Positions 1,028-17,385 of a stretch of DNA of 17,955 nucleotides are shown here, one piece after another. The DNA is from a virus. Lineage: Duplodnaviria > Heunggongvirae > Uroviricota > Caudoviricetes. Positions within the stretch are counted from its first letter, which is position 1, and every line of letters begins with the position of its first letter. Made by a program: the position numbers and the translations under genes. The stretch lies in IMG/VR virus record IMGVR_UViG_2529292723_000018; one strand, given 5' to 3'. A model generated the notes under the pieces. It was not told where the DNA came from, made no database searches, and worked only from the letters and a program-made list of their open reading frames with translations.

Positions 1028-2647
1028 TCATGCTCCACTCGATTTCAGTAATCCGCGATAGTCGAGGGCCGCGACACCTGCATCTATGCGCACCTTCCAG
1101 GCGACGCCATCAACAGTAAATCCCTCCTGCTCCTCAAGATATGGCGTATCAATACCATCAAGATAAGCGACCTCTATCGTGTCCATCCCCTTCGCCGCTG
1201 CCACATACCACTCCTTGTTATTGGCTTTATCAAGACGCGGCTCGACGATAACCTCTGCCATATCTTTCACCACGTTAATGATGCCGGGGTTCTGATTGAT
1301 AGTGCCTCCACCATCAATCGGAAAGAGTGATGACGATGACAGAATGGCGCGATGTGCGGCAGACTCCAGCGCAGCAGGGACCAGAACAAAAGCGGGGGTA
1401 ATATTCAGGGAGTCGCCGTTGCCATCCTCCTGTAATCGCATCAGCTTACGGGCTTCGTTAAGCCCCTCCATGTCCATATCCTTCGCAATAAGATTTTTAT
1501 GATCGGCATGGAATAACGCTTTACCATCCGTAAATTTGCCGTTGCTGGTTAACAGAAGATAAACCAGATTACCTACTGTTCTGGCGGCCGCACGCCCCAT
1601 CGCCATGGGGATTGTAGTTAACTGGGTCAGGTCATCGTTGATAATGGCCTGACGGGTAACAGAAAAAATATTACCGTATGTGGCCAGCGCAATAGGTACA
1701 CCTTTATCGCTGGTGGTGATGTATTTATATTCCGCACCTTCCGGTACTTTATCCAGCTTTGAAAAACCATTCAGACCAACGCGCTTTGCTTCATGAAAGT
1801 TTGAAAGCGATCCGGTACACGTCCATTTCTGGAACGTTTCGCCGCTGTCCTGCCAGCCTTTCAGCACTGATTTTTCAGCACCACCAGCCAGAATATGAGA
1901 AAAATCGCTGCTGCTGTGTGTGAAAGCTGCATTAACGACCTGCGAGCGATTTAAAAAATTGCCAACACTGATACCACGATCAGTTAGTGATGCCTGGGCC
2001 ATTTCAAAAAGGCTCATCATCGCGTAAGGATTTCCCCGCTCTGGGCGTTCATACCCGAGACGAGAATAAAGCCCCTGACGAATTGCATCGCCTGTTATGT
2101 TCCCGTTACCGGCATAAATATGAGTCGGGATATTTTTATTGGATGGCGTGGACTCGCGCCCCAGCTCGTTCAACAACTTTTCACGGGCCATCTCCGGTGT
2201 ACATGATGCATCCTCCAGGCACGCCATTTTGATCCCGTCGTAACGACTGCCGAACAGGCTAAACACTTCACTTATTCCGTTGATGCGCTTCTGTTCATTA
2301 CCAGCAATATTTGCCGCTCCCTGTGGCGGTGTAATCATTCCTTTAATGGTTTCCGGCATATGTAAAAAATCTCCTGTGCGTTTCGATTCAATTCGCGCCA
2401 TTACTCTGACGGATGGCAACAATTCATCAGCAAAACCGTGCTTAAGGCATTCTTTCCCATCCATCCAGGTTTCATCCTCCAGCATGGCGGTAATTTCCTG
2501 TGCTGATTTGCCCGTTTTTCTGGCATAAGCAGGGATTAACACGGTTTCCACCTTATCCAGCAAATCAGCATAATCACGCATATCGCCAGCATTTCCGCCA
2601 GAGATCCCCCACGGTTTATGGATCATCATGCAATACATTGAAATCAT
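1028..2647 (-). CDS. HK97-fold major capsid protein, C-terminal portion of a ClpP-like protease-capsid fusion; 5' part removed by insertion of element E2 (likely pseudogene fragment)
   Basis: About 80% protein identity by eye to residues ~104-638 of the intact fusion at 4671..6587; homology starts exactly at MMIHKPWGISGG; sequence upstream of 2629 is unrelated. Confidence 0.75.
   Translation of the reverse strand: MISMYCMMIHKPWGISGGNAGDMRDYADLLDKVETVLIPAYARKTGKSAQEITAMLEDETWMDGKECLKHGFADELLPSVRVMARIESKRTGDFLHMPETIKGMITPPQGAANIAGNEQKRINGISEVFSLFGSRYDGIKMACLEDASCTPEMAREKLLNELGRESTPSNKNIPTHIYAGNGNITGDAIRQGLYSRLGYERPERGNPYAMMSLFEMAQASLTDRGISVGNFLNRSQVVNAAFTHSSSDFSHILAGGAEKSVLKGWQDSGETFQKWTCTGSLSNFHEAKRVGLNGFSKLDKVPEGAEYKYITTSDKGVPIALATYGNIFSVTRQAIINDDLTQLTTIPMAMGRAAARTVGNLVYLLLTSNGKFTDGKALFHADHKNLIAKDMDMEGLNEARKLMRLQEDGNGDSLNITPAFVLVPAALESAAHRAILSSSSLFPIDGGGTINQNPGIINVVKDMAEVIVEPRLDKANNKEWYVAAAKGMDTIEVAYLDGIDTPYLEEQEGFTVDGVAWKVRIDAGVAALDYRGLLKSSGA
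2618..2629. repeat. left copy of 12-bp direct repeat ATGGATCATCAT (candidate att core, left junction of E2)
   Basis: Identical 12-mer at 12935..12946; both copies lie at the break points of the split protease-capsid gene and are in frame with it. Confidence 0.6.
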
Positions 2648-2696
2648 CCTACTGATAAATAAGATTAAAAATCACAATACAGATACGTTTGAGCTT

Positions 2697-2720
2697 CATT
2701 GCAATACGCATTGCAATACA
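2697..2720. repeat. tandem CATTGCAATAC(G/A) repeats near left end of E2 (candidate integrase arm-type or regulatory sites)
   Basis: Two tandem 12-mers; a near-identical tandem pair at 12781..12806 just upstream of the int start codon. Confidence 0.45.
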
Positions 2721-3069
2721 CGGTTGCTGGGTGATTTCAAAAGATGAATGCTGCGAAGGATGGAAATTTGGGAACTAGGTGGTGAATAGCACAACAAAAA
2801 ATCAGAATTCTACTAGCTTAAAATGATGCAAAAAGCATTCGTGGCATCGCAAGCGCTGTACAATTCGTTCTATAATGAAGAAAATTTCTAACAGACTTTA
2901 TCATTCAAAGGTGGAGGAGATGACAGCAATGCAACATGCATCACGCTCATACTTGAATTGTAAAGCTATCGTTAGAATCACAGCCTTTTTGTTCCGCTGA
3001 TCTAACGATAAAACTAGTGGTAAAAGGTATATTTTTTAATTTTTCAGACGCTGGCGCGGGGTAATTAAA

Positions 3070-3372
3070 ATGAAATTTGTAAATATACGGTCATCCGAGT
3101 TGCCTGAAATAGATACCTTTGTAAAAGAATGTATCAACCAAGGACAATGGACTCTTTTCAAGGCCGAGAAGGGTGCAGTTAATGATAATAAAGTTGCTTT
3201 TTTTCTAAAGGCTGGCAAAGATTTCTTTGCATTAAATAACAGAGGAAGTGTTATCTCTGTATTTCAATCATTAGATTATAATCTTGAAATGAATGAGGTA
3301 ATTCATTTTTCAGATATTCCTAAACCTGAATCGTTGAGCAATATTGCTAGCTTAGGATTTGCTAGAGTTTAA
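3070..3372 (+). CDS. hypothetical protein (100 aa), first gene of AT-rich cargo operon
   Basis: ATG at 3070; 18-bp gap to next gene on same strand; visibly AT-rich codon usage unlike the core genes; no recognised motif. Confidence 0.55.
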   Translation: MKFVNIRSSELPEIDTFVKECINQGQWTLFKAEKGAVNDNKVAFFLKAGKDFFALNNRGSVISVFQSLDYNLEMNEVIHFSDIPKPESLSNIASLGFARV

Positions 3373-3390
3373 TATATAAGGATATGTACG

Positions 3391-4281
3391 ATGGGATTAA
3401 TATCTGGAAATACACATTGGGTATTATTTTTACCTTGTGAGCACCAACCAGAAGATCGCCATGTTCAAGATTTAGTTCATGGCGTCTTTTGCTTAGAATC
3501 CTCAGGTATACAGCCATCTAATATTAGCATATATATTGATGGCCAAAATAGAGCCAACTTTAATAAGTTAATTTCGATTGCAACCCAACATAATTATACT
3601 ATCAAGCCTACATCTGAATTTTTCACCGACTGCGATACAAATAGTTATGAAAATCTAGTTATGTTTGTGACCGGACACGGAAGTATGAATGGTTTGGACT
3701 CTGCGCCGATCATAACCCCATACCGTTTATTGGACAGGTTAAAAAACACTCCTGTTCTCAAGCAAGCAATCGTTTATCTTGGTCAATGTTTCGCTGGTGT
3801 TTTCAACTACTTACCTGCTGGGCAGCGTAAGAGAGGTGAAGATGCCGACCCCGATGTCATTCTTATCGGGGCTACGAGTCTTCATGAAAGTTTGAGTAAT
3901 CCAACAACGGAAAATATTAATGGTATAGATTTTCCTTGGGTTGCAAATCAATTTTTATATCATGTATTTAAGTGGATATCATCCCCGAATGATATCGATG
4001 GGGATGGAAAACATACAGTAATTGACTCTTATAAGTATGCTGGAATCTCATCAAACATGACCAATCGTAGAATGAAGATAGGTTCTTTTGTAGCTTCGGT
4101 AGACTTGCATGAGCAATGGAATACTGCAAAAAAAGATCATGAAGCTAACTTGGCTGATCCACAAAAACTACTCCGTTATAGAGCATTAGATCAGCAATAC
4201 TATGAAAAACTGAACATTAACTATATTCATCAAGAGTGCTGGATATTAAATTCTGTACCTGCACAATCTGTTGAATTCTAA
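3391..4281 (+). CDS. predicted caspase-like (clan CD-type) cysteine peptidase, candidate His96/Cys133 dyad; candidate anti-phage effector
   Basis: TAAGGA Shine-Dalgarno 7 nt upstream; hydrophobic strand + His-Gly (NLVMFVTGHGS) and hydrophobic strand + Gln-Cys (AIVYLGQCFAGVF) 37 residues apart, the arrangement seen in caspase/legumain-type peptidases; AT-rich. Confidence 0.5.
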   Translation: MGLISGNTHWVLFLPCEHQPEDRHVQDLVHGVFCLESSGIQPSNISIYIDGQNRANFNKLISIATQHNYTIKPTSEFFTDCDTNSYENLVMFVTGHGSMNGLDSAPIITPYRLLDRLKNTPVLKQAIVYLGQCFAGVFNYLPAGQRKRGEDADPDVILIGATSLHESLSNPTTENINGIDFPWVANQFLYHVFKWISSPNDIDGDGKHTVIDSYKYAGISSNMTNRRMKIGSFVASVDLHEQWNTAKKDHEANLADPQKLLRYRALDQQYYEKLNINYIHQECWILNSVPAQSVEF

Positions 4282-4285
4282 TCCT

Positions 4286-4453
4286 TTACTTTTTTGAATA
4301 GATTGCTGCAAGTGCCGTTTTGAGGTCGTAATTTCGGCACTTGCAACTGCAACCAGAAATAGGGCGAACGTTTGACAAACGTTTAGCTATAGTCTGCCGA
4401 TGAAATCCAGTCACTTCCGCCAACTCACTTAAATTTAGAACTATCTTTTTCAT
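4286..4453 (-). pseudogene. remnant of Nu1-like terminase small subunit (55 codons, HTH portion only)
   Basis: Hand translation MKKIVLNLSELAEVTGFHRQTIAKRLSNVRPISG... parallels NINQLAAIAGICRQTAAARLKNIQPAGG of the 285..770 protein, then diverges; ends 4 bp from the stop of the convergent cargo gene; not in ORF track (under 60 aa). Confidence 0.45.
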
Positions 4454-4547
4454 CATAATTACCCTTCAGATGTCGAACAAATAACATACAATCCATCATC
4501 TTTTCCACTTTTATAAAGTTTTACCTAATAAAATTCAGTTAGTTAGC

Positions 4548-4632
4548 GAATGATGATGATGTCTATAAAATTCAAAAACTAGCCGTTTCCCGCGATGCCG
4601 CCGCCCCGTGGCAGGCATCCCCGCCGGGAGTA
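4548..4632 (-). other. lambda-like cos site (cos2) of element E2
   Basis: Minus strand reads CCACGGGGCGGCGGCATCGCGGGAAACGGCTAGTTTTTGAATTTT...CATCATCATCATTCG; same position (capsid 3' end to terminase remnant) as cos1. Confidence 0.55.
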
Positions 4633-4634
4633 CC

Positions 4635-4662
4635 TTTTAAAAAAGGGCAGCATCTGCCGCCC
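4635..4662 (-). terminator. putative rho-independent terminator after capsid gene
   Basis: Short GC hairpin (GGCAG/CTGCC) followed by a T-run on the minus strand. Confidence 0.4.
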
Positions 4663-4670
4663 TCCTGTCG

Positions 4671-6587
4671 TCATGCCGCCCCGCTCGACTTCACCATGCC
4701 CCGATAATCCAGCGCCGCCACGCCAGCATCGATACGCACCTTCCATGCAATACCGTCCACAGTGAAGCCCTCCTGCTGTTCCAGATACGGCACGTCCATT
4801 CCATCCAGATATGCCACCTCGATAGTGTCGGTGCCTTGCGCTGCAGTGACGTACCACTCCTTGTTGTTGGCCTTGTCCAGTCGCGGCTCAACCACTACCT
4901 GCGCCATATCCTTCACGACGTTGATAATGCCTGGGTTCTGGTTCAGCATACCGTTCTGGTCTACCGGGAACAGCGAAGATGATGACAGCACAGCTCGATT
5001 GGCTGCGCCTTCCAGCGCGGCAGGTACAAGGATATAGGCTGGGATAACATTAATAGGATCGCCGTTCGCATCCTCCTGCAGACGCATAGCCTTACGGGCC
5101 TCATTGAGTCCGTCTGTATCCATCCCTTTAGCGATGAGGTTTTTATGGTCGGCGTGGAACAACGCTTTACCATCTGTGAATTTGCTGTTGGCGGTCAGTT
5201 GCAGGTAGACCAGATTGCCAACCGTTCGTGCGGCGGCACGCCCCATTGCCTGTGGAATGGTCGTGAGCTGGCTCAGGTCATCGTTGATAATGGCCTGGCG
5301 TGTAACAGAGAAGATGTTTCCATAGGTGGCCAGCGCGATCGGCACACCGCTGTCGCTGGTAGTGACATATTTGTATTCAGCACCTTCCGGGACTTTATCC
5401 AGTTCTGAAAAACCATTCAGACCGACACGTTTAGCCTCATGGAAATTCGACAGAGAACCGGTCTTTGTCCACTGCTGGAAAGTTTCCCCGCTGTTCTGCC
5501 AGCCAGTCAGCACCGACTTTTCAGCACCACCAGCCAGGATATGAGAGAAATCACTGGTGCTGTGCGTAAATGCCAGGTTCACGATCTGCGAGCGATTCCC
5601 GAAACCACTGACGCTGATACCACGATCCACCAGCGAAGCCTGCGCCATTTCAAACAGACTCATCATGGCGTAAGGGTTTCCCCTTTCGGCGCGTTCGTGA
5701 CCCAGACGGGCAAAAAGCCCCTGGCGGATAGCATCGCCGGTAATGTTGCCGTTACCTGCGTAAATGTGCGCGTTACTGGTTTTATCCGATGGGGTCGAGG
5801 TCTTACCCAGTGCCGTCAGCAGCATGTCTTTTGCTTTTTCAGGCGTGCAATCCACATCCTCCAGACACTGCATCTTGAGAGAATCATGCTTGCCGCCGAA
5901 CATGGCAAACAGATCCTTAATCTCGTTGATGCGGTTCTGTTCCGGTACAGCGCTACTGGTGGAACCTTTCGGGCTGGTGATCATCCCTTTAATTTCTTTT
6001 GGCATATGCTCAAAATCCTCAATTCGTTTTGACTCAATACAGGCCATTGCCCTGACGGCGGGTAACAATTCGTCAGCAAAACCCTGCGCTACACATTCGC
6101 GGCCATCCATCCATGTTTCATCCTCCAGCATTTCCGCCAGTGATTCGGCTGATTTACCCGTTTTGCGTGCATATGCCGGGATCAAGACACTTTCGACTTT
6201 ATCCAGAAGTTCGGCGTAGTCGCGCATGTCGTTGGCGTTCCCACCAGAGATTCCCCACGGTTTGTGAATCATCATGAGTGCGTTTTCGGGCATAACGATA
6301 CGGTCGCCAGCCATTGCAATAACTGACGCCATAGACGCGGCGAGACCGTCGATCTGCACTGTAATTTTTGCCGGGTGTTTATTCAGAAGGTTATAGATAG
6401 CGATGCCGTCAAAAACATCGCCACCGGGTGAATGAATGTGCAGGCTGATATGGGAGATATCGCCTAGGGCTTTCAGGTCTTCGGAGAACTGCTGCGCCGT
6501 AATACCCCAGCCGCCGATCTCTTCGTAGATGCTGATATTGGCGCTGGTGCCATCGCTGGCCGCTTTGATGGTGTACCAGCCTTTCAT
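4671..6587 (-). CDS. ClpP-like prohead protease fused to HK97-fold major capsid protein (638 aa), intact
   Basis: ATG at 6587 with AAGGGGA Shine-Dalgarno; N-terminal ClpP-like motifs (GLAASMAS, MMIHKPWG); long C-terminal capsid-like region; ATGA overlap with upstream small gene. Confidence 0.85.
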   Translation of the reverse strand: MKGWYTIKAASDGTSANISIYEEIGGWGITAQQFSEDLKALGDISHISLHIHSPGGDVFDGIAIYNLLNKHPAKITVQIDGLAASMASVIAMAGDRIVMPENALMMIHKPWGISGGNANDMRDYAELLDKVESVLIPAYARKTGKSAESLAEMLEDETWMDGRECVAQGFADELLPAVRAMACIESKRIEDFEHMPKEIKGMITSPKGSTSSAVPEQNRINEIKDLFAMFGGKHDSLKMQCLEDVDCTPEKAKDMLLTALGKTSTPSDKTSNAHIYAGNGNITGDAIRQGLFARLGHERAERGNPYAMMSLFEMAQASLVDRGISVSGFGNRSQIVNLAFTHSTSDFSHILAGGAEKSVLTGWQNSGETFQQWTKTGSLSNFHEAKRVGLNGFSELDKVPEGAEYKYVTTSDSGVPIALATYGNIFSVTRQAIINDDLSQLTTIPQAMGRAAARTVGNLVYLQLTANSKFTDGKALFHADHKNLIAKGMDTDGLNEARKAMRLQEDANGDPINVIPAYILVPAALEGAANRAVLSSSSLFPVDQNGMLNQNPGIINVVKDMAQVVVEPRLDKANNKEWYVTAAQGTDTIEVAYLDGMDVPYLEQQEGFTVDGIAWKVRIDAGVAALDYRGMVKSSGAA

Positions 6588-6796
6588 TTTTCCCCTTCCG
6601 TTACAGCGAAGCCATTTTCATCAAGCCATGCGTTGACTGCGTGCCGGACTACCTGTGCCACTCCGGGCAATGGCTGGACAGGAAGATTTTTCAGATGATC
6701 GTTGCGGTATTGCTTAAGGCGTACAACGGTTTGCGCGTCCAGATGTACGGAGCCGCCTTTAGTCTCGCCAGTGTTTAAATCGTTAATGTCACTCAT
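6584..6796 (-). CDS. small conserved protein (70 aa) upstream of and translationally coupled to protease-capsid gene
   Basis: ATG at 6796 with AGAGGA Shine-Dalgarno (ORF-track start at 6844 is TTG); homolog at 13258..13464 (MSDINDLNTGE... vs MSCINDLNTGD...). Confidence 0.55.
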   Translation of the reverse strand: MSDINDLNTGETKGGSVHLDAQTVVRLKQYRNDHLKNLPVQPLPGVAQVVRHAVNAWLDENGFAVTEGEK

Positions 6797-6941
6797 GATG
6801 TCCTCTACTGTATAAGTAAACAGGTTATGATGATTGATCACCAAAAGTGGTAAGTGAACAATTTTTTATCTGAAAAATAGATTTATGATGAAAAAAAATT
6901 TTTGTATGGTCTTAGATTGGAATAAACAGAAAGGTTAAAAA

Positions 6942-7655
6942 ATGGATCTCACTCGTAATGACGAACTCCTTTTGAATGATGCAGCTAGACGCTCATTTCG
7001 GGATATGGCAGACCAGGATTATCTCTCAGCTCGTCTGTGTTATAAGCACAAATTGAATTTTCAATTTTTATGGCTTTCGCAACAAGCCGTAGAGAAATAT
7101 ATTAAAGCGATTTTACTTTATAATAGAGTTCCAGTATTAAAATTAAATCACAATTTAAACAAAGGGCTGGCAAAGATTAAAGAAATCCCATATCTTGAAT
7201 TAGACCTAGATGTAAAAAGTGAGCGATTCATAGATTATCTCAATGAGCAGGGCCCAAATAGATACTTCCAAAACACTATGTATACCGAAGGCTTTGAAAT
7301 TATAACCTTGGATAGAACCATCTGGGAATTAAGAAGATACTGCAAGCCACTAAACTACTCAATTACTAACCCAAAAGGTGAAGTGATAGAAATGTTAGAA
7401 CATGAATTGAGTAGCATAAAAAATTCGAAGTCGAGGCCTTATCATACGTTCAAACTATTTGGAGGTTACTTAGAAAAAAGATTAAAAGATAATAAATTCA
7501 ATCAGGGCGACATACTTACATGGAAAAATTTATTTTTTGGAAGAAATAAAAAAAATGCAATTAGAATTGGAAGATCAATGCATGTAACTCATCCAACTCA
7601 TTATATGTACCCAAATGCAACGGAAATGCTCAGTCGTTTCTTTAAAATAAAATAA
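6942..7655 (+). CDS. HEPN-like protein (tentative), candidate abortive-infection effector; AT-rich cargo
   Basis: N-terminal helix pair with QQAVEKYIKAILL resembling the HEPN QAxEKxLKA signature; R-x5-H (RIGRSMH) near C-terminus; opposite strand to flanking core genes. Confidence 0.5.
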   Translation: MDLTRNDELLLNDAARRSFRDMADQDYLSARLCYKHKLNFQFLWLSQQAVEKYIKAILLYNRVPVLKLNHNLNKGLAKIKEIPYLELDLDVKSERFIDYLNEQGPNRYFQNTMYTEGFEIITLDRTIWELRRYCKPLNYSITNPKGEVIEMLEHELSSIKNSKSRPYHTFKLFGGYLEKRLKDNKFNQGDILTWKNLFFGRNKKNAIRIGRSMHVTHPTHYMYPNATEMLSRFFKIK

Positions 7656-7744
7656 TTACATTCCAATTTTATTTACCGCTGTTAAATAAGTAAGGTATAT
7701 CTTTATTTATCGACATTGATAATCATGAAAGAGTATATCTTTTT

Positions 7745-7960
7745 TGCCGCACCTAGCGCATTTCTCACCGCACTTTCATCCCGCGCACTTAGGTGCGCAA
7801 TCCAACATGCACCGTACAGCCATTAAAACCAGTAATGGGGCGGGTTTGCAGGTGATTAATGCCAAACCGCGCACTTTCTTCGTATATACATGGAAAAAGT
7901 GCGGCAAGTGTATGTTTTATGAGCATTTCGCGCATCACGCGCATTTCTTGCCGCACTTTT
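7745..7960. repeat. iteron-like repeat cluster (TTGCCGCAC / CGCACTTT / GCGCATTTC, direct and inverted); candidate origin for the E2 replication protein
   Basis: TTGCCGCAC at 7745 and 7949, its complement at 7900; CGCACTTT four times; GCGCATTTC at least twice; lies immediately 3' of the replication gene, as the TGTTCACC iterons do in E1. Confidence 0.45.
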
Positions 7961-7964
7961 CAGG

Positions 7965-9374
7965 TTAAATTATCGTGATATCTCCTGAATCATCGATAAA
8001 GATAATATTCTCCCTAACGAGTTTATCAAGCCAGCGTTTAAAACCTTTGCGGCCGTTCTCTCCAAACAGAGTGGTAATATCATCACGTATAACAGAGACA
8101 TTACACGGTTCACCTTTGGCTTTTCGGCTCCGGATTGACTGCCAGAGTGCAGCGTGGTTCCCAGTCAGGTGCTTGATATCAGCAAGTTCCGGATCAGGTT
8201 CTCGTGCCTCTCGTGGCAGGTCCTGCACCACCAGCGACGAAATAAGCTCACCATCACGATCTGTGAACAATTCGATCGGACGCAGATCGAATGCGGCCTG
8301 TTTCGGCTCCTCCGCATCTTTCATCTTCGTACAGGTCAGGATTATCGCCCCACCATCCCCCTCGCGCCGGACATTGAACTCTGCATCGAGCGCAGCCCTG
8401 AAAGCACTGGAACCACGTGCGCCTTTGGTATCGTCTTTTCCTGAATGATGCACCACCAGCAACGTGGCGCCAGTCTCACGCTTGATGACGTCGCAGCCTT
8501 CAATAAACGCCCCCATGTCACGAGCATCGTTTTCATCGTTACCACCAAAGCACCGCGCTAGAGTATCTATGACAATCAGGCGAACCGGCTGCCCCGTTTT
8601 GGACTTAACGTCACGCGCAGCTTTGATCATCTCCTGCATTTCCTCACGGCGAACCGGGAAAACCGGACGGTTTACCAGATACAGATTATTTAGTTTCACA
8701 CCATGTTTTTTCTCCCACGCCTTTATTCGCCGCGGAACGCCAATACCACCTTCACCTACTACGTACATCACAGCGCCGGCTGATACCGACTTCCCCGCCC
8801 ACTTCATCCCGGCTGCAACGTGACAAGCCCAGGACACCGCCAGAAAACTTTTATACGAACCGCTCGGGCCGTAGATACTGCTCAGGCTGTTAGCGGGAAG
8901 ATAACTTTTTAACGTGTAATCCTGCTCCTGATCGTACCCATCAGAGCCCACGCTTAAAGGAAGGCTGTGCCGCAGTGACTCCTCTCGCACAGAGACTTCA
9001 ACCTGTTCACGCAGACGAGAAAGATATTCCCTCCAGTCCTCAGGCTCATGGTCGGGGATTCCTTTATACAATTTGGCATCCTGCACGCCAGCCAGCGCCA
9101 GCTTTTCAGCAATGTTATTAATCTGGATAGGCTTTATATTCCCTGCCAGGTAAATCCGCACGGCACGACGGCCATCATCCACAATGCGCAGGTTATCCAG
9201 CTCTGCCAGTTGTTTTGGCCCAAGGTAAACAGGAGGAGTGGTATCTTCGGCAATCTGTTTACCAAGCCCCTCTTCCCAACCCTTCGCATGGGCGTATGCT
9301 TCTGACCCGGCAAAAATAACTGCCTCCGTGAATTTTTCTTTTGGCAGGTGTTTCAGATTCGGTGCGTTTTTCAT
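7965..9374 (-). CDS. replication protein: N-terminal domain shared with the P4-family primase at 14246..16063 plus AAA_25/RecA-like ATPase (pri-rep type)
   Basis: ATG at 9374 with AAGGGG Shine-Dalgarno; deviant Walker A (YGPSGSYKSF); LLVVHHSGKD...RGSSA motif typical of RepA-like ATPases; first ~110 aa align with the E1 primase (KxAPNLKH...). Confidence 0.75.
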   Translation of the reverse strand: MKNAPNLKHLPKEKFTEAVIFAGSEAYAHAKGWEEGLGKQIAEDTTPPVYLGPKQLAELDNLRIVDDGRRAVRIYLAGNIKPIQINNIAEKLALAGVQDAKLYKGIPDHEPEDWREYLSRLREQVEVSVREESLRHSLPLSVGSDGYDQEQDYTLKSYLPANSLSSIYGPSGSYKSFLAVSWACHVAAGMKWAGKSVSAGAVMYVVGEGGIGVPRRIKAWEKKHGVKLNNLYLVNRPVFPVRREEMQEMIKAARDVKSKTGQPVRLIVIDTLARCFGGNDENDARDMGAFIEGCDVIKRETGATLLVVHHSGKDDTKGARGSSAFRAALDAEFNVRREGDGGAIILTCTKMKDAEEPKQAAFDLRPIELFTDRDGELISSLVVQDLPREAREPDPELADIKHLTGNHAALWQSIRSRKAKGEPCNVSVIRDDITTLFGENGRKGFKRWLDKLVRENIIFIDDSGDITII

Positions 9375-9694
9375 TTCAGCCCCTTATCCCATCCGTCAGA
9401 TCCAACACTCAGCGGCAGAGAAGAGCGCAGAGCAGCGATTTTTTTACGCACGTTTTCTTTTCCGGTCTCCTGCCACTCCCTGCTTTCCTCAGGGAGATAA
9501 ATAAATTCTTTTCGGAACCGGTACTCAGAAAAAATACACTCATGTGAATACCCATCCCGGACATACGTAATACGGCTATCCGTTATGCATGTGACAGTAA
9601 TTTTTTCTCCGCGAGAATCTTTCCAGCGACTGTTAAGCTCGATTTTTGGTTGAGCGATGCCCTCAAGCTGAACCTGATTGAATTTTTTAATCAT
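9371..9694 (-). CDS. small protein (107 aa), homolog of 16060..16359; C-terminal tail resembles the primase linker
   Basis: ATGA overlap with primase start; YVRDGYSHECIF vs YFIRDGYSFHSS in the E1 homolog; C-terminal LRSSLPLSVGSDGWD matches primase LRHSLPLSVGSDGYD. Confidence 0.55.
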   Translation of the reverse strand: MIKKFNQVQLEGIAQPKIELNSRWKDSRGEKITVTCITDSRITYVRDGYSHECIFSEYRFRKEFIYLPEESREWQETGKENVRKKIAALRSSLPLSVGSDGWDKGLK

Positions 9695-9698
9695 GAAT

Positions 9699-9878
9699 TT
9701 ATTCCTTGTCGGTAGCCGTTAAACCGTATGCTTCAGCAGCCTGACGAACTGCCTGGATAAAACCTTCCGGTGTGGCCACGATTTCGTCCGGACGAAGGCG
9801 GCGCTCTGTAACCTGACCGTTTTTAACCGTCACCAGTACGCGGATCTCGTAATCAGCAGGTAAGGCGGAGTTATCCAT
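9699..9878 (-). CDS. small hypothetical protein (59 aa from internal ATG)
   Basis: ORF-track frame 9699..10004; upstream part overlaps the better-supported gene 9871..10158, so start placed at ATG 9878. Confidence 0.3.
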
Positions 9879-10158
9879 GGCGCCCCTCCATTGGCACAGC
9901 TTCATTGCTGTAAGGATCGCTACCCAAGATGCTCCATAGGGTGCGATGTTCAGGATCCATAAACGACACTGAGAGCGGGCTTTCTGTTCGGATTTTGGCG
10001 GCAAAGGTCAAGTCCCAGCCGCAGAACTTTGCACGGGCAGTATCTTCAGTGTCTGCAATGGTGCGCAGAACTATCGGGAGACAAGAGTGACCTCGCGGCG
10101 TGCCAAGGAATAGCCATGTAAATTTTGGGCGAGTTTGGGTATGCTGTTGATCAGCCAT
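9871..10158 (-). CDS. small protein (95 aa), first gene of leftward operon; homolog of 16679..16883
   Basis: ATG at 10158 with GAGGT Shine-Dalgarno; shared KFTW motif and downstream pattern with the E1 homolog. Confidence 0.5.
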
Positions 10159-10190
10159 AACTGTTACCTCAACTAACGGTTTGTGGTTAG

Positions 10191-10239
10191 ACGTCCCGTG
10201 AGTGGTTCCAAGCACTTCCGGGACGTTGCTTTTTTCACG
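10191..10239. promoter_or_regulatory. conserved stem-loop (ACGTCCCG / CGGGACGT, 20-nt loop) followed by T-run, at the 5' end of the leftward operon
   Basis: Same structure at 16919..16965 in E1 with a compensatory pair (T-A replaced by C-G). Confidence 0.45.
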
Positions 10240-10248
10240 TCAAGCGTG

Positions 10249-10298
10249 ATAACGTACGTACGTAATAGCAACATCCTATGAGGTTACGTACGTACATG
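10249..10298. promoter_or_regulatory. two palindromic operator-like sites (ACGTACGTACGT core) between divergent RHH gene and leftward operon
   Basis: TAACGTACGTACGTAATA and TTACGTACGTACATG about 34 bp apart; second overlaps the start region of the RHH gene. Confidence 0.5.
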
Positions 10299-10487
10299 TC
10301 AACAATAAAACGAGATAAAACACCCAAAGGAGAGGGCTTGTCTCCGACATTCCAAATCCGAATAAGTCCTGAATTGCGCCAGCAGATGAATGAAGCTGCT
10401 GAGCGTGAGGGAGTAAGTCTTGGTAATTGGCTTAAAGGTCTGGCTAGAAATGAACTTATTAAGCAAGGAATTGAACCTAAAGGTTAG
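10278..10487 (+). CDS. ribbon-helix-helix (Arc/CopG-like) transcriptional regulator, candidate E2 repressor
   Basis: RISPELRQQMNEAAEREGVSLGNWLKGLARNEL fits a beta-strand plus two helices; true start may be ATG 10296 (MSTIKRDK); adjacent to palindromic operators. Confidence 0.6.
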   Translation: MRLRTYMSTIKRDKTPKGEGLSPTFQIRISPELRQQMNEAAEREGVSLGNWLKGLARNELIKQGIEPKG

Positions 10488-10540
10488 TTTTCACAAGCAC
10501 TCTTTGATTTTTTCAGTAAAAATTAAATTAAGGAAATTCT

Positions 10541-11251
10541 ATGGATGATTTATATACACCATCTGAATATTTTATGTTCGTAGAGAAATTTGATCATTAC
10601 TTCCCACGAAAAAGCCCTTTTAACTCATTATTATTCGAGTTCAATTATAGATTAGAAGATATAGTTGTTTTTCATCGCTTTGTTATCAACACCTATTCAA
10701 AAAATAAAAAAGCAATTGATGTACAATATAATAAATTTAATTTTCTTGATGATAAACAAAAAAATTCCCTTTCTGATGACGAGTATGAAGCGTATCAACT
10801 CAGGTTTGCAAGGCATATGGAATACATTAACCATCAAACTGATTTGAATGAAAAAGCGTCTTACATTGCTAACGATAGTGTCGTTATAAACTTATGGGCC
10901 ATGAATGAACAATATATGACTAGAGGATTGGCCAACCTAATATCTCAAAAAGAAAATAAAAATTTAAATGAAGTTAAAACGCCTTACAAATGGGATACAA
11001 TCAAAAGTAAATTCCTGTCATATGGAATCAACTTTGAGACATTGCCATCTTATGATGACATTAATGAATGTAGAGTACTGAATAATAAAATAAAACATCT
11101 GAACATAGTAGATTCTGGTTTAGAAGTTTTCCCTCCCTTCAAAGGTAAGCTTAACGAATCACTTACTGGCATGGCCTTTCCTCTTCAAAAATATATCATA
11201 GGCTCTCATCACTTTATAGGAATGCTATTAGAAGAGTGCTCATTAAAATAA
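10541..11251 (+). CDS. hypothetical protein (236 aa), AT-rich cargo in the RHH-alpA slot
   Basis: AAGGA Shine-Dalgarno; AT-rich, Asn/Lys/Ile-rich; the same slot in E1 holds only a 62-aa ORF; no recognised motif. Confidence 0.55.
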   Translation: MDDLYTPSEYFMFVEKFDHYFPRKSPFNSLLFEFNYRLEDIVVFHRFVINTYSKNKKAIDVQYNKFNFLDDKQKNSLSDDEYEAYQLRFARHMEYINHQTDLNEKASYIANDSVVINLWAMNEQYMTRGLANLISQKENKNLNEVKTPYKWDTIKSKFLSYGINFETLPSYDDINECRVLNNKIKHLNIVDSGLEVFPPFKGKLNESLTGMAFPLQKYIIGSHHFIGMLLEECSLK

Positions 11252-11255
11252 ACGC

Positions 11256-11292
11256 ATGGCAACGTATAATTTATCGCTTAATACGTTGCCAT
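11256..11292. terminator. 12-bp perfect inverted repeat (ATGGCAACGTAT / ATACGTTGCCAT, 13-nt loop) between convergent genes
   Basis: Lies between the stop of 10541..11251 (+) and the stop of alpA (-); no strong T-run, so terminator function is uncertain. Confidence 0.4.
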
Positions 11293-11297
11293 ATCTC

Positions 11298-11543
11298 TCA
11301 TTTATTTTTATCGAACCAATCTCCTTTAATCCAAGCTTGCATCTCTGAGAGCCGGTAAGCAACTGCTGACGGCCCAATTTTGATTCGCTTAGGAAATTTT
11401 CCTTCCTGTTCCATGCGCCAGCGCGTTGAGTTAGACAACGTAGTCATAGCCCGGCATTCAGGTTCGCGAATCATTCTGTCAAGGTCAGGCATGTACTGGA
11501 GATCTTCTTTTTTCACAACGGATAACATAGCCATATCAGGCAC
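11298..11543 (-). CDS. alpA: AlpA-family excisionase / transcriptional regulator
   Basis: MIREPECRAMTTLSNSTRWRMEQEGKFPKRIKIGPSAVAYRLSEMQAWI matches the AlpA pattern as recalled; start may be the internal ATG at 11492; 8-bp overlap with int. Confidence 0.8.
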   Translation of the reverse strand: MPDMAMLSVVKKEDLQYMPDLDRMIREPECRAMTTLSNSTRWRMEQEGKFPKRIKIGPSAVAYRLSEMQAWIKGDWFDKNK

Positions 11544-12771
11544 TCCTTTTCTTAATTACTTTTACTGTATTTTCTTCACCCACCAGCCCATCAAGGTAGT
11601 CAACCCATCGGTCCAGTGCTTCTTGCTTTTGAGGGATATACTTGCTGCGGTTATAGACTCCGGCCACGCCCTTTATGGTATGCCCCAGCAGCTGCTCTAC
11701 GACCATAAAATCAACGCCCATATCGTTAAGGCTTGTCGAGAACGTTCGTCTCAAATCATGTAATGACCAGCGTTTTTCATGTTTCAGAGAGATAAAGTTT
11801 GTGCATCCCATCGTACTGACGGTTGAATCAGATTTCAGTTCGCCAAATATGTAGCCTCTCCTTTTAGTCTCTTCGTGCAGGTTTACGATCCACTGGCGCA
11901 TTTTTTGAGGAACGGGGCGAATAATTTCTTCGCCGTTTTTACTGTGCTCTTTAGGTACTGTCCAAATCCACTTATCGAAATCCCACTCATCCCATGTAGA
12001 TAAACGCGCCTCACTCAGCCTGCAGCCAAACACGAGACACAAAATCGCCATCCTTTTTTTGTAATTCATTACACGGGTTTTGCCTTTACCATGAAAGTAC
12101 ACTCCCCACAGATCGGCGACGTAGCTTTCCTCAAGTAGCCGCTCTCTCTTGTTCTGATACTTACCGATATCACCAGGGCTCAAATCATCAAGCACATTGC
12201 ACCGCACATACTGGCGCACCCGGCAGTATTTGAAGATCTGCTTTAACTCAATCAGCATTGCAGCAGACTGAACCGGCGCGATTTTCTTTATGCGGTCGAA
12301 GCACTTGATCCAGTCTGACAGACCGCATTTCTCGACAGGAAACCCGCCGATGTAGGGAAAAATGTATCTCTCATAACGGCGATAGAGCCGTAAAGTCTCT
12401 TTGCGCTTTTCCCTGGCATAGTTATCAAACCAGTAATCGATAGCGTTCTTCACAGTTACTGGAGTGAACAGGTTCTCTTTGGTGAGTTTGTTCTCTATTC
12501 GTGGGTCGAGTCCCTGAGATAGCCATGCCCGGCACTCGTCCCTTTTCTCTCTGGCCTGTTTAAGGGTCATATCTGGATACTTGCCTAACGTCATCCAGAC
12601 GGGGGCGCTTTGTCGGCCGGAATGTCTGAAGAAATACACAAAGCTCACAGTGCCACTAACGCTCACTCTGACAGACAGTCCACGACCATCTGCCACCATC
12701 TTTTGACGCGGCTGGGGTTTACCATGTAAGGCCTTTAACGCCTTGTCGCTTAACTTGTTCTCGCCCGCCAT
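11536..12771 (-). CDS. int: P4-type tyrosine integrase
   Basis: N-terminal arm-binding pattern (GRGLSVRVSVSGTVSFVYFF...LGKYPDMTLKQAREKR); C-terminal catalytic-region motifs LHDLRRTF and LLGHT...VYNRSKY; adjacent to right junction of E2. Confidence 0.9.
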   Translation of the reverse strand: MAGENKLSDKALKALHGKPQPRQKMVADGRGLSVRVSVSGTVSFVYFFRHSGRQSAPVWMTLGKYPDMTLKQAREKRDECRAWLSQGLDPRIENKLTKENLFTPVTVKNAIDYWFDNYAREKRKETLRLYRRYERYIFPYIGGFPVEKCGLSDWIKCFDRIKKIAPVQSAAMLIELKQIFKYCRVRQYVRCNVLDDLSPGDIGKYQNKRERLLEESYVADLWGVYFHGKGKTRVMNYKKRMAILCLVFGCRLSEARLSTWDEWDFDKWIWTVPKEHSKNGEEIIRPVPQKMRQWIVNLHEETKRRGYIFGELKSDSTVSTMGCTNFISLKHEKRWSLHDLRRTFSTSLNDMGVDFMVVEQLLGHTIKGVAGVYNRSKYIPQKQEALDRWVDYLDGLVGEENTVKVIKKRSA

Positions 12772-13258
12772 AAAACCTCATTCTGCAATACACATTGCAA
12801 TACACACTTAACTGCAACGCCGAAAAACAGTAGAAAAGCAATGCAAACAACACCTCTTCTTTCTTCATAATTAACAATAAGTTAATGAATGAATACGGTT
12901 CTTCATGCGTACCCATGAGGTAGTGTGAAGGATAATGGATCATCATCATGGCGTTCTCCGGCATCACTACACGATCGCCAGCCATTGCGACCACCGAAGC
13001 CATTGAAGCCGCAACACCATCGATATAAACCGTAATGTCTGCCGGATGATTCCGTAGCAGGTTATAGATGGCGATGCCTTCAAACACATCACCACCTGGT
13101 GAATGGATCCTCAGATTGATATGTGAAACATCGCCAAGGGCTTTCAGGTCTTCCGCGAACTGCTTTGCAGTAACACCGAAGCCGCCAATCTCCTCATAGA
13201 TAGATATATCCGCCGCTCCACGAACATCCGCCGCCTTAATGGTGTACCAGCGATTCAT
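12719..13258 (-). CDS. N-terminal fragment of ClpP-like prohead protease (first 108 codons authentic; remainder is read-through into E2 DNA); disrupted gene
   Basis: MNRWYTIKAA...GVAASMASVVAMAGDRVVMPENAMMMIH is about 75% identical by eye to the N-terminus of the intact fusion, then diverges at the 12-bp repeat. Confidence 0.7.
   Translation of the reverse strand: MNRWYTIKAADVRGAADISIYEEIGGFGVTAKQFAEDLKALGDVSHINLRIHSPGGDVFEGIAIYNLLRNHPADITVYIDGVAASMASVVAMAGDRVVMPENAMMMIHYPSHYLMGTHEEPYSFINLLLIMKKEEVLFALLFYCFSALQLSVYCNVYCRMRFYGGREQVKRQGVKGLTW
12781..12806. repeat. tandem TGCAATACA repeats 10 bp upstream of int start
   Basis: CTGCAATACACATTGCAATACACAC; matches the tandem pair at 2697..2720. Confidence 0.45.
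12935..12946. repeat. right copy of 12-bp direct repeat ATGGATCATCAT (candidate att core, right junction of E2)
   Basis: Identical to 2618..2629; protease homology begins exactly here on the minus strand. Confidence 0.6.
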
Positions 13259-13776: not shown

Positions 13777-13848
13777 ATGAAAATGCAAAAACCAGCCTTT
13801 TTCCGCGACGCTCCCGCCCCGTGGCAGGTCACTACACCGGGAGGACCC
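13777..13848 (-). other. cos-like segment (cos3), about 72 bp near-identical to cos1 but lacking the CATCATCAT cosB-like flank
   Basis: Two mismatches to cos1 across the cosN-like core; flanking sequence differs immediately beyond GCATTTTCAT. Confidence 0.5.
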
Positions 13849-13850
13849 AT

Positions 13851-13878
13851 AAAAAAGCCGGATTGCTCCGGCTTCTGT
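13851..13878 (-). terminator. rho-independent terminator
   Basis: GCCGGA-ttgc-TCCGGC hairpin with a 6-A run on its + strand 5' side. Confidence 0.5.
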
Positions 13879-14002: not shown

Positions 14003-14231
14003 CCTTCACCTGTTCACCTTTTGATATTTTCTCTTTTAATTCATAATGTTAAGGGGTGAACAGTTTCACAAAAACTATTCACCAACTGTTCACCACTGTT
14101 CACCCTTGAAGCTCAATAAACAATCAAAAAGGTGAACAGTGAATAGTTTGGTGAACAGTTCATAAATAACTGTTCACCCTATAATATACTGATATAAAAG
14201 ATATTTATGACAGGGTGAACAGTGGTGAACA
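14003..14231. repeat. P4-type iteron cluster: at least 10 copies of TGTTCACC / GGTGAACA in both orientations (candidate ori/crr)
   Basis: Exact octamers at 14011, 14055, 14087, 14097, 14131, 14150, 14171, 14214, 14224 plus variants; TGTTCACC is the octamer bound by P4 alpha protein at ori and crr. Confidence 0.75.
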
Positions 14232-16365: not shown

Positions 16366-16686
16366 TTATCCCCGATTTGAATCAGTATTCGCTTTCTTTA
16401 TGGCATTTAATGCATCTGTGGCATTTTCAATGGTGCACCGTAACGAAATATCAAAATGTCCAAGCATTGCCAGTAACAAACCGATATTACCCATATCAAT
16501 GCGCATGGCCTTTGCGTCATATTCCTCATTTTCTGACGCATGCCACATCAGGCTACCAATTGACGCAACAGCCATTGATATATTGTCAGTAGCCCCATCC
16601 GCAGCGGAATAAACCTTTTTAGCAATATCATGCTCACAGTTAAAATGCGGATTAATCAGGTACTGGTAATTTGACATATCAGGCAT
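16366..16686 (-). CDS. hypothetical protein (106 aa), E1-specific gene in a variable slot
   Basis: ATG at 16686 with strong AAGGAGGT Shine-Dalgarno; no counterpart in E2, where a different 59-aa ORF occupies this position. Confidence 0.55.
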   Translation of the reverse strand: MPDMSNYQYLINPHFNCEHDIAKKVYSAADGATDNISMAVASIGSLMWHASENEEYDAKAMRIDMGNIGLLLAMLGHFDISLRCTIENATDALNAIKKANTDSNRG

Positions 16687-16883
16687 GGCGCACCTCCTTG
16701 CGGATACGGGCGGTGAACACCATCACGCAGCCAGCCGGGGATTGCTGGCGGGCTTCCTGTTCACTGGTGGCCACGATGGTAATCACACGCGGTTTTGCGG
16801 CGCTCAGGGCGATAAAACGCCAGGTGAATTTATTCAGGTTGTGCGAATCCCGCCCTCGCGGGTGTATGGTATGATTTCTCATA
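16679..16883 (-). CDS. small protein (67 aa), homolog of 9871..10158
   Basis: ATG at 16883 with GAGG; shared KFTW motif. Confidence 0.45.
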
Positions 16884-16918
16884 GCTGCCTCGATACTCTC
16901 GTTATCGTTGGTGGTTAG

Positions 16919-16965
16919 ACGCCCCGTATGTGTTTCCGGCACTGCGGGGCGTTGCTCTTTGTATT
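16919..16965. promoter_or_regulatory. conserved stem-loop (ACGCCCCG / CGGGGCGT), counterpart of 10191..10239
   Basis: Same position relative to the leftward operon; compensatory base-pair change versus the E2 copy. Confidence 0.45.
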
Positions 16966-16978
16966 TCAACAATCCTTT

Positions 16979-17058
16979 CGGTGTGTTTCATGTTATGAGC
17001 GCATGAAACACACGTCAAGGCTTTTTGTATTTCTTTTTTTGTGTATACTGAAACACAC
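16979..17058. promoter_or_regulatory. palindromic operator-like sites (GTGTGTTTCATG-N9-CATGAAACACAC, plus a GAAACACAC half-site)
   Basis: Perfect 12-bp inverted repeat upstream of the RHH gene; half-site repeated at 17050; sequence unrelated to the E2 operators. Confidence 0.5.
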
Positions 17059-17079: not shown

Positions 17080-17385
17080 ATGGCAACGGCTAACAAAAAC
17101 GCAAAATCACAACTGACAACTGTCAGAGTCCCACTAGATGTTATGCAAGGGATGGAATCCGTTAAGCTGGACGGCGAAAGCAATGCCGGATTTATCGTAA
17201 CCGCCATGCGCGGAGAAATAGCCCGCCGCCAAGCAGAAGGCAGCGGAGAAAATCCCCTTGTGTCGTCACTGGATGCCCTGGCTAAGGTCGAACAAATCGG
17301 CATCAAAGCAGCGGAAGAAATCGGGCAGCTTGTCACCGTTGCACGCGAAGAACTCCAGCGTCGCAAGACCAAAGAACCAGAGTAA
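17080..17385 (+). CDS. ribbon-helix-helix-like transcriptional regulator, candidate E1 repressor
   Basis: AGGAG Shine-Dalgarno; N-terminal TVRVPLDVMQGMESV...FIVTAMRGEIARR fits strand plus two helices; positional counterpart of 10278..10487. Confidence 0.55.
   Translation: MATANKNAKSQLTTVRVPLDVMQGMESVKLDGESNAGFIVTAMRGEIARRQAEGSGENPLVSSLDALAKVEQIGIKAAEEIGQLVTVAREELQRRKTKEPE

Follow-up and report, generated by a model that had tools for sequence, protein, structure and literature searches.

What does a hairpin repeated at the head of the leftward operon of two neighbouring satellite-like elements do, and on which strand does it act? The question arises in a 17,955-nucleotide stretch of DNA from a virus of the Caudoviricetes (IMG/VR virus record IMGVR_UViG_2529292723_000018; this whole stretch is the window referred to below), which holds two such elements, E1 and E2. 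In both, the hairpin lies between the predicted leftward promoter and the start codon of an Icd-like gene, the first gene of the operon. The first-pass annotation of the window had placed it at the head of the leftward operon, as a structure of that transcript. The analysis described here indicates that the conserved hairpin most likely belongs to the opposite strand. It is probably the Rho-independent terminator of a cis-antisense RNA of ~80 nt that lies opposite the leftward (replication) operon of each satellite. This RNA would consist of a first stem-loop (SL1), the hairpin in question (SL2) and a U-rich tail.

Conservation of the hairpin and the strand that carries it

In E2, the hairpin arms read from the sequence are ACGTCCCG (10191-10198) and CGGGACGT (10219-10226), lengthened by a G10190·T10227 wobble and by an inner helix of 4-5 bp. 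The companion hairpin of E1 has the arms ACGCCCCG (16919-16926) and CGGGGCGT (16945-16952), and the two are distinguished by a compensatory pair, T10194-A10223 in E2 versus C16922-G16949 in E1. Both hairpins, this pair and the two unrelated palindromic operators next to them were all found where the first-pass annotation had put them.

Relatives were gathered in three ways: by protein search, by a DNA pattern in which the inner stem was left free, and by BLAST against complete Escherichia coli genomes. A search of genome contigs with a two-protein alignment returned five loci, and a protein search of viral contigs returned 13. Most homologues came from the DNA pattern, which fixed GCAACG...CGTCTAACCA. 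About one-third of its matches arose by chance; most of these were removed by a stem-pairing filter, and four that passed the filter were removed by eye.

Covariation analysis across homologous islands, which had been proposed as a check, bore out the view that the hairpin is a selected structure. Pairing is kept and the stem covaries strongly in 49 distinct homologues, with 98.6% of cells paired on the + strand. None of 500 shuffles attained any of the five measures used, and slid partners paired in only 36-48% of cells. Within SL2, six of the ten outer pairs and one of the three inner pairs have changed on both sides, as have all five pairs of the SL1 inner helix. RNAalifold returned a two-hairpin consensus of 22 pairs for the same sequences, 12 of them with double changes. 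The T-A/C-G difference that had first been offered as the argument for selection carries little of this weight: the pair is C-G in 48 homologues and U-A in the E2 lineage only, and is thus a single event. The conclusion that the structure is selected holds, and it rests on far more than that pair, since the whole stem covaries strongly.

The strand on which selection acts can be read from the wobble pairs. On the + strand 171 cells are G·U, while only two cells are A·C, the state that would be G·U in the leftward mRNA. When two near-invariant G·U columns are left out, the counts are 81 versus 2, again in favour of the + strand. Likewise, wherever the stems of relatives are imperfect when read as mRNA, the fault is always a C·A mismatch, for which the opposite strand has G·U. 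The consensus energy given by RNAalifold is -27.75 kcal/mol for the + strand and -10.06 kcal/mol for the - strand. The + strand also folds better in each of 57 distinct cores (mean -35.3 versus -24.0 kcal/mol), all of which share a common shape: a long SL1, one or two unpaired bases, SL2 and a U-rich tail. For the two copies in the window, the minimum free energy (MFE) on the + strand is -35.2 kcal/mol in E2 (10153..10236; z -4.8) and -35.7 kcal/mol in E1 (16883..16962; z -4.5), against -25.2 (z -2.4) and -21.8 kcal/mol (z -2.3), respectively, for their complements. A covariance model built from the alignment of homologues, R1, scored 75.2 bits on the + strand of E2 against 14.3 bits on the - strand, and 82.1 bits on the + strand of E1. 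R1 also detected the RNA element in loci that had been retrieved independently of the hairpin pattern.

These results bear directly on the placement of the hairpin in the leftward transcript. So placed, it would fold in the 5' untranslated region (5'-UTR) of the leftward mRNA and serve as a stabiliser, a processing site or an attenuator bypassed by AlpA. The complement of the hairpin is indeed part of the leftward leader, which has fold energies of -25 and -22 kcal/mol (z about -2.4). Further, both elements carry an alpA-like gene, and according to two reports (PMC9371919, PMC7969949), Pseudomonas AlpA acts as a processive antiterminator, carrying transcription past a terminator that lies downstream of its promoter. 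However, only 82.9% of cells pair on the mRNA strand, and the wobble asymmetry runs in the wrong direction. The alifold consensus on that strand loses SL1 and most of SL2, and R1 gives only 13-14 bits on the - strand of the window. The mRNA-strand stem is followed by CUAACCAC, which holds no U-tract; the U-rich tail after the hairpin, as well as a conserved -10 element 38-40 nt upstream of it, are both found on the + strand. We therefore depart from the first-pass annotation on this point and consider a role in the leftward 5'-UTR improbable. The more specific candidate, a sense terminator bypassed by AlpA, was rejected because the mRNA strand has no U-tract and the wobble asymmetry is opposite to that expected.

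Parts of the predicted antisense RNA

The putative promoter of the RNA lies within the Icd-like gene itself. The motif TAnnnT stands exactly 7 nt before the first base of SL1 in all 56 distinct homologues compared, in seven hexamer variants (TATGCT, TATGAT, TAGACT, TATCAT, TACTAT, TACACT and TATAAT). The same spacing recurs in loci found by BLAST, namely five more E. coli chromosomal copies and one plasmid copy. An extended -10 is typical of E1-type elements, and one relative (L131 among the retrieved loci, which are numbered with an L) carries TGGTATAAT. In the E2 type the SL1 stem includes the Icd-like start codon; in the E1 type this codon precedes SL1 by 3 nt. While the start codon is offset by 6 nt between the subtypes, the distance from the -10 to SL1 is constant and that to the start codon is not.

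The codons that overlap the -10 are constrained in an unusual way. In E2-type homologues the residues encoded by codons 5-7 vary (QHT, QST, HDT, QCN, HST, KST), and codon 6 is CAT, TCT, TGT, GAT or AGT with the final T always kept; codons 7-9 are nearly always ACC CAA ACT. Third-position variability is 0-0.2 bits in codons 6-9 against 1.3-2.0 bits in codons 11 and 16-20, and the Pro codon at position 11 is found in all four forms among homologues. Variable amino acids combined with frozen third positions argue for a constraint at the nucleotide level beyond that of the protein.

At the other end of the predicted RNA, SL2 has the G+C-rich stem and the nearby U-tract that mark a Rho-independent terminator. 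Its outer stem is mostly G-C, UUUUUU follows 2 nt later in E2, and at least four U residues occur within a 6-nt window of the tail in 52 of the 56 homologues. The RNA also overlaps the Icd-like ribosome-binding site (RBS) completely, and complementarity to this site is displayed in a stem-loop, as is characteristic of a cis-antisense regulator. The anti-Shine-Dalgarno (anti-SD) sequence occupies the apical loop of SL1 in E2 and, in the predicted fold, the 5' arm of SL1 in E1. The 5' arm of the E2 SL1 bears the complement of the icd-like AUG as well (CAU, 10156-10158). A covariation-supported structure on the antisense strand is a further trait of such regulators that is found here. Table 1 lists the features of both elements.

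Table 1. Features around the hairpin in the two satellite-like elements. Promoters, RNAs and their parts are predictions; RHH, ribbon-helix-helix.
Feature	Positions	Strand	Basis and remarks
E2 Icd-like gene, first of leftward operon	9871..10158	-	NCBIfam NF033153 phage_ICD_like, 58.7 bits (cut-off 25); SD GAGG 10170-10167
E2 predicted -10 hexamer, TATGCT	10140..10145	+	inside codons 5-7 of the Icd-like gene
E2 predicted cis-antisense RNA, ~84 nt	10153..10236	+	SL1 + SL2 + U-tail; R1, MFE
E2 SL1	10153..10188	+	fold; 7-nt apical loop CCUCAAC, anti-SD
E2 SL2	10190..10227	+	outer stem 9-10 bp, inner stem 4-5 bp; read as intrinsic terminator stem
E2 U-tract, TTTTTT	10230..10235	+	2 nt beyond the stem
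E2 operators, ACGTACGTAC(GT) palindromes	10252-10265, 10284-10297		one in the leftward-promoter spacer, one downstream of the -10
E2 leftward promoter	10273..10302	-	-35 TTGACA 10302-10297; -10 TAGGAT 10278-10273; scan 10/12
E2 divergent RHH-type regulator, HicB/YlcI-like	10296..10487	+	Pfam HicB PF05534, E 1.7e-5, 25 bits (cut-off 21)
E1 Icd-like gene, first of leftward operon	16679..16882	-	NF033153, 66.5 bits; SD GAGG 16891-16888 under SL1 5' arm
E1 predicted extended -10, TGgTATGAT	16867..16875	+	inside codons 3-5 of the Icd-like gene
E1 predicted cis-antisense RNA, ~80 nt	16883..16962	+	SL1 16883-16916, SL2 16918-16953, tail UGCUCUUUGU
E1 SL2, companion hairpin	16918..16953	+	holds C16922-G16949
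E1 operators, GTGTGTTTCATG and CATGAAACACAC	16981-16992, N9, 17002-17013		overlap the leftward promoter
E1 leftward promoter	16990..17018	-	-35 TTGACG 17018-17013; -10 TAACAT 16995-16990; scan 9/12
E1 divergent YlcI/YnfO-family regulator	17080..17385	+	NCBIfam NF041551, 63.2 bits (cut-off 30)

A transcript of the + strand need not end at SL2. Transcription might instead run through SL2 and on into the regulator gene, the + strand RNA then being the 5' leader of this longer rightward transcript and SL2 an attenuator that sets the dosage of the regulator. The RHH gene does lie on the same strand, 50-130 nt downstream of the hairpin, and several tails are imperfect U-tracts that would permit read-through. 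Further, E2 positions 10221-10233, a 13-nt stretch formed by the 3' arm and the U-tract, are 85% complementary to 10264-10276, so that the two could compete with the terminator. In E1, however, a separate -10 (TATACT, 17046-17051) and an operator half-site stand between the hairpin and the regulator gene, so that the regulator is probably served by an autoregulated promoter of its own. Among relatives, the intergenic module beyond the hairpin is freely swapped, whereas SL1 and SL2 are constant, and SL1 is built around the Icd-like anti-SD, for which a regulator leader has no need. On balance we regard a regulator leader as unlikely, although it is compatible with an antisense RNA, as both readings can hold at once.

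The hairpin could also function as DNA, either as an inverted repeat bound by a protein or as a single-stranded DNA (ssDNA) hairpin used in replication or packaging. It adjoins replication genes, and G·T pairs are tolerated in ssDNA hairpins too. For a binding site in duplex DNA, however, one would expect a conserved sequence instead of covariation, and no asymmetry of wobbles between the strands. The -10 at a fixed distance and the U-rich tail would have no role, and iteron-like, origin-like repeats are found elsewhere, at 14072-14161. We give this explanation hardly any credence.

Several points weigh against the antisense RNA itself. The promoter, start and 3' end of the RNA are predictions. 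The E2-type -35 element read from the sequence, TGTAAA, is weak (3/6), and a simple promoter scan of the E2 region returned no promoter for the antisense RNA. As a terminator SL2 departs from the typical form: it has a bipartite stem, the apical part of which is long and comprises an inner helix of 3-5 bp and a loop of 5-8 nt; 2 nt (GC) part the stem from the U-tract; and the E1 tail is interrupted. Terminator scans of both regions did not call SL2 as a whole. As for the alignment, the DNA pattern that yielded 40 of the 49 sequences leaves no freedom in the three outermost pairs and the flank, so that those columns carry no information. The sequences also share descent, and the cell counts given above are therefore not independent events and overstate their number. 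It should be noted that, despite this shared descent, G·U intermediates (U·G) are seen at several different columns and in different modules. Finally, the toxicity of the Icd-like proteins is our assumption, taken from the Icd of phage P1.

With these points considered, the hairpin fits best as the terminator stem-loop in a new family of cis-antisense RNAs that lie opposite the Icd-like leader of phage satellites, which would make the RNA a regulator of a known kind. The RNA could work as follows. From the sigma-70 -10 inside the first Icd-like codons (TATGCT in E2, TGgTATGAT in E1), transcription would begin with the first base of SL1, ~7 nt downstream. The polymerase would first copy SL1 with its anti-SD of the Icd-like gene, which in the E2 type is presented in a 7-nt apical loop with the start-codon complement in the stem, and would then stop at SL2 and the U-rich tail to release an RNA of ~80 nt. 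The leftward start of E2 is predicted near 10266, so that the leader would hold the full complement of the antisense RNA, and in both elements the leftward mRNA is predicted to start upstream of the whole complement. The RNA, a perfect complement of the leftward 5' leader, would pair with leaky transcripts from the promoter repressed by the RHH protein. Pairing would begin at the loop, and the Icd-like RBS would then be occluded, with translation repressed. Probably the duplex would also become open to attack by RNase III, or Rho would gain access to the untranslated leader, with decay of, or polarity on, the replication genes behind. In a quiescent satellite, the putatively toxic division inhibitor and the downstream primase or helicase genes would thus be kept silent by two layers, the RHH repressor at the promoter and the antisense RNA.

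Two side observations concern the RNA and its surroundings. A perfect small hairpin (CCCGCC-CTCG-CGGG region, 16848-16863) lies inside the E1 Icd-like codons, directly upstream of the predicted antisense -10; it is conserved in E1-type relatives and is a weak look-alike of CRISPR-DR28 (15 bits). In E. coli SLK172 (L142), one satellite holds two copies of the antisense-RNA element (768-850 and 1517-1598), ~750 bp apart. The second copy is not beside an annotated Icd-like gene, which suggests a duplication or the remnant of a second nested element.

Comparison with known regulatory RNAs

The RNA was compared with known families by model searches. Scans against Rfam, which covered the whole window and, with lax filters, the two hairpin regions, returned sub-threshold matches only: SymR, R1162 and miRNA or CRISPR-repeat look-alikes. 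By these model tests the antisense RNA is not a member of the C4, SymR or R1162 families. No Rfam family matched, no description of this RNA was found in the literature, and no RNA feature is listed at its site in the RefSeq annotation of the matched E. coli records.

The most instructive comparison is with C4 (phages P1 and P7), CI (P4) and isrK/seqA, which share with the RNA described here the slot it occupies and the presumed RNA-level silencing of icd and the genes that follow. Like C4, the antisense RNA has an early promoter on one side and an icd-type gene on the other. C4 and CI, however, are carried on the same strand as their target, are processed from its leader and act through short loop-target pairings, whereas in the window the structure is selected on the strand opposite the target, and the RNA is complementary to its target throughout. 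The C4/CI model (RF01695; gathering score 45 bits) gave no match in the window at E up to 1, nor in the two hairpin regions of 230-260 nt at E up to 10. In relatives whose Icd-like gene is 61-63% identical to that of E2, isrK followed by C4 occupies the same slot on the mRNA strand, at 75-79 bits; RF01695 itself gives 77.7 bits in L004 and 79.2 bits in L005, two of these relatives. That isrK and C4 stand at the same position in relatives indicates that this position is used for RNA-based control. R1 in turn gives no match in the C4-carrying relatives, and as the elements of the window give none with C4, the same slot is therefore filled by a different RNA solution. The loci in which isrK and C4 were seen in the slot of the antisense RNA are L004, L005 (2241-2432) and L014-L016. 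In a paper that covers phage-inducible chromosomal islands (PICIs), C4 and isrK profiles match Gram-negative PICIs, and most mentions of 'icd' refer to the isocitrate dehydrogenase integration site (PMC10111431).

It could be argued that the hairpin is nonetheless a divergent immunity RNA of the C4/CI class, cut by RNase P from the leftward leader, with ...CGUCUAACCAC after the stem as a mimic of an acceptor stem and its CCA. The position is that of C4 in relatives, and a conserved flank containing ACCA does follow the stem on the mRNA strand. Yet that flank is simply the SL1 3' arm on the + strand, the structure is selected on the strand opposite to that which such an RNA would use, and no C4 match was obtained in the window even with lax filters, where relatives score 78-79 bits. 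Complementarity between a hairpin loop and the RBS on the mRNA strand, as in C4, was sought by eye and nothing convincing was seen. We hold a C4-class RNA to be highly improbable.

In its anatomy, the predicted RNA comes closest to the sar RNA of phage P22. In the immI region of P22, sar is a cis-antisense RNA of ~69 nt, transcribed from a promoter inside the operon that is convergent with the main promoter, and it is complementary to the RBS of ant. The region is ruled by the RHH repressors Mnt and Arc, which act on palindromic operators at a divergent promoter pair. The convergent promoter, the overlap with the RBS, the terminator hairpin and the divergent RHH regulator with its palindromes all have counterparts in E1 and E2. 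Sequence or model similarity between the two RNAs was nevertheless not found, with no Rfam family matching, and the target in P22 is an antirepressor, while here it is an Icd-like gene heading a satellite replication operon.

SymR/SymE and other type I toxin-antitoxin systems offer another likeness: a cis-antisense RNA of ~77 nt with two stem-loops that lies over the 5' end and RBS of a harmful gene. SymR (RF01809) indeed gave the best sub-threshold Rfam alignment of the E2 region, covering exactly 10153-10230 on the + strand, but at 24.1 bits against a gathering score of 61, and in E2 only, this amounts to structural resemblance only. Here, in contrast to SymE, the target heads an operon of several genes that is governed by a protein repressor, and its toxicity is putative. 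Plasmid countertranscripts such as the R1162/RSF1010 antisense RNA (RF00043) also resemble the predicted RNA, being short RNAs complementary to the leader and RBS of the gene that heads a replication operon. The weak RF00043 alignment includes CUAACCACNAAC and the SD-AUG region, scores 22.2 bits against a gathering score of 55, was obtained in E2 only and lies on the strand of the mRNA; it provides no evidence that the two are homologous.

The comparison with C4 leads to a further and more doubtful suggestion. The antisense RNA might be a second, RNA-level immunity determinant that displaced isrK/C4 of relatives, with the hypervariable apices of SL1 and SL2 setting which co-resident satellites silence one another. 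We put this forward tentatively. Heterologous duplexes between the antisense RNA of one element and the leader of the other are predicted to have about half the cognate energy (-84 versus -169 and -173 kcal/mol), and the heteroimmunity of P1 and P7, which is based on differences in the c4 loop, is an analogue of such loop-set cross-silencing. The question is relevant here because E2 is nested inside E1.

Regulators, satellites and wider occurrence

Behind the Icd-like gene, the leftward operon continues with a DUF4222 gene (confirmed by Pfam in E2 only, 9371-9694) and extends to an AAA_25 helicase in E2 and a D5/P4-type primase in E1. In both elements the palindromes overlap the promoter that would be repressed, as do the operators of Arc/Mnt-like repressors. 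The E2 palindrome has six overlapping matches at up to one mismatch, all at the operator spot, where 0.47 were expected; one of 200 shuffles attained six. It is also found, together with the same regulator type, in five relatives (L027, L035, L062, L074 and L107). In E1 there is a third exact half-site, TGAAACACAC (17049-17058). Counted over the whole window, the E1 10-mer half-site is not above chance by itself (30 of 200 shuffles); the three copies are all exact and lie within 78 bp, and the palindrome accompanies the same 101-aa regulator in eight relatives. The E2 regulator scored 27.7 bits against NCBIfam YlcI_YnfO_N, slightly below the cut-off of 30.

The region beyond the hairpin is modular. 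Some ten or more palindrome types occur in ~50 relatives, each with one type of regulator protein; they include ACGTACGTACGT, GTGTGTTTCATG..CATGAAACACAC, AGGTGTACACCT, TGTAATGTGTCATTACA, TGATTACC..GTAATCA and GTGCTATTCACC..GGTGAATAGCAC. SL1 and SL2 recur across the regulator/operator modules. It had been proposed that the operators are element-specific and matched to divergent RHH regulators, and this is upheld across the relatives, in which the palindrome type tracks the RHH/YlcI-type protein. Since operator and regulator types change together, their co-inheritance supports element-specific repressor-operator pairs, as judged from sequence. The same co-inheritance is the basis for the proposed binding of the RHH proteins to the palindromes and for the proposed distinct immunity specificities.

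The arrangement of the two satellites is not a simple tandem. E2 (~2650-12870) is inserted inside the prohead-protease/capsid gene of E1, the pieces of which lie at 1031-2629 (-) and 12875-13258 (-). A 179-aa open reading frame (ORF; 12719-13258) corresponds to residues 1-128 of the 638-aa protein of E2 with 69% identity, and a 539-aa ORF (1028-2647) to residues 105-637 with 80% identity. Each element carries a prohead-protease/capsid fusion gene, as do capsid-forming PICIs (cf-PICIs); the label rests on the translation and on the annotation of a relative. The integrase/AlpA end is seen whole in E2, with an integrase gene (11536-12771) and an AlpA-like gene (11298-11543), while of this end of E1 the window shows only an AlpA-like gene, at its edge; these labels come from reading ORF translations. 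The nesting is similar to that of the 'helper-embedded PICIs', which have an integrase clade targeting capsid genes (PMC10111431), except that the target here is the capsid gene of another satellite.

Other loci in the window deserve mention. Just downstream of the E1 primase gene, 14072-14161 forms a long imperfect inverted repeat of GGTGAACAG-like iterons, which matched Rfam only as a chance-level miRNA look-alike (23.8 bits) and is probably the E1 replication origin. A repeat of ~80 nt occurs at 13777-13856, with 95% identity to 924-1003 and 78% to 4567-4643; two of the copies lie just downstream of capsid genes, and the repeat could be a packaging or att-related site. In E2, two oppositely oriented ORFs of 236 aa (10541-11251, +) and 237 aa (6942-7655, +) lie between the core modules, where satellites often carry defence or accessory cargo; the 236-aa ORF had no Pfam or NCBIfam match.

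Plasmids carry the module as well. Several E. coli plasmids, among them pLR-06-2 (L001, NZ_AP025548.1, positions 3600-4400), hold an intact leftward promoter, operator and antisense-RNA module (R1, 94 bits). There the reading frame of an Icd-like N-terminus (MAGSQHTQTRPEFTW...) runs on into an unrelated ORF, and next downstream come a WYL (BrxR-like) gene and a BREX operon; the promoter/antisense module may drive or gate this defence locus.

The DNA segment that includes the RNA region is widespread. BLAST matches to it were obtained in 1594 of 5426 complete E. coli genomes (~29%), frequently at more than one site, and it is also found in Kosakonia, Enterobacter and BREX-carrying E. coli plasmids. 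In E. coli O157:H7 TW14359, for instance, a copy lies at NC_013008.1 1538481-1538559, on the - strand of that record. If the RNA is made, it would constitute an unannotated small-RNA family, widespread among the phage satellites of E. coli. Control of capsid-forming, PICI-like satellites, whose induction is described in the cf-PICI paper solely via the alpA gene, would thereby gain a further layer at the RNA level, and the RNA would account for the silencing of a putatively toxic division inhibitor that heads the replication operon. On a practical note, synonymous edits in Icd-like codons 5-9 would not be silent. Finally, related elements would have arrived at two unrelated RNA solutions in a single slot, a processed RNA of the C4/CI type on the same strand in some and a cis-antisense RNA in others.

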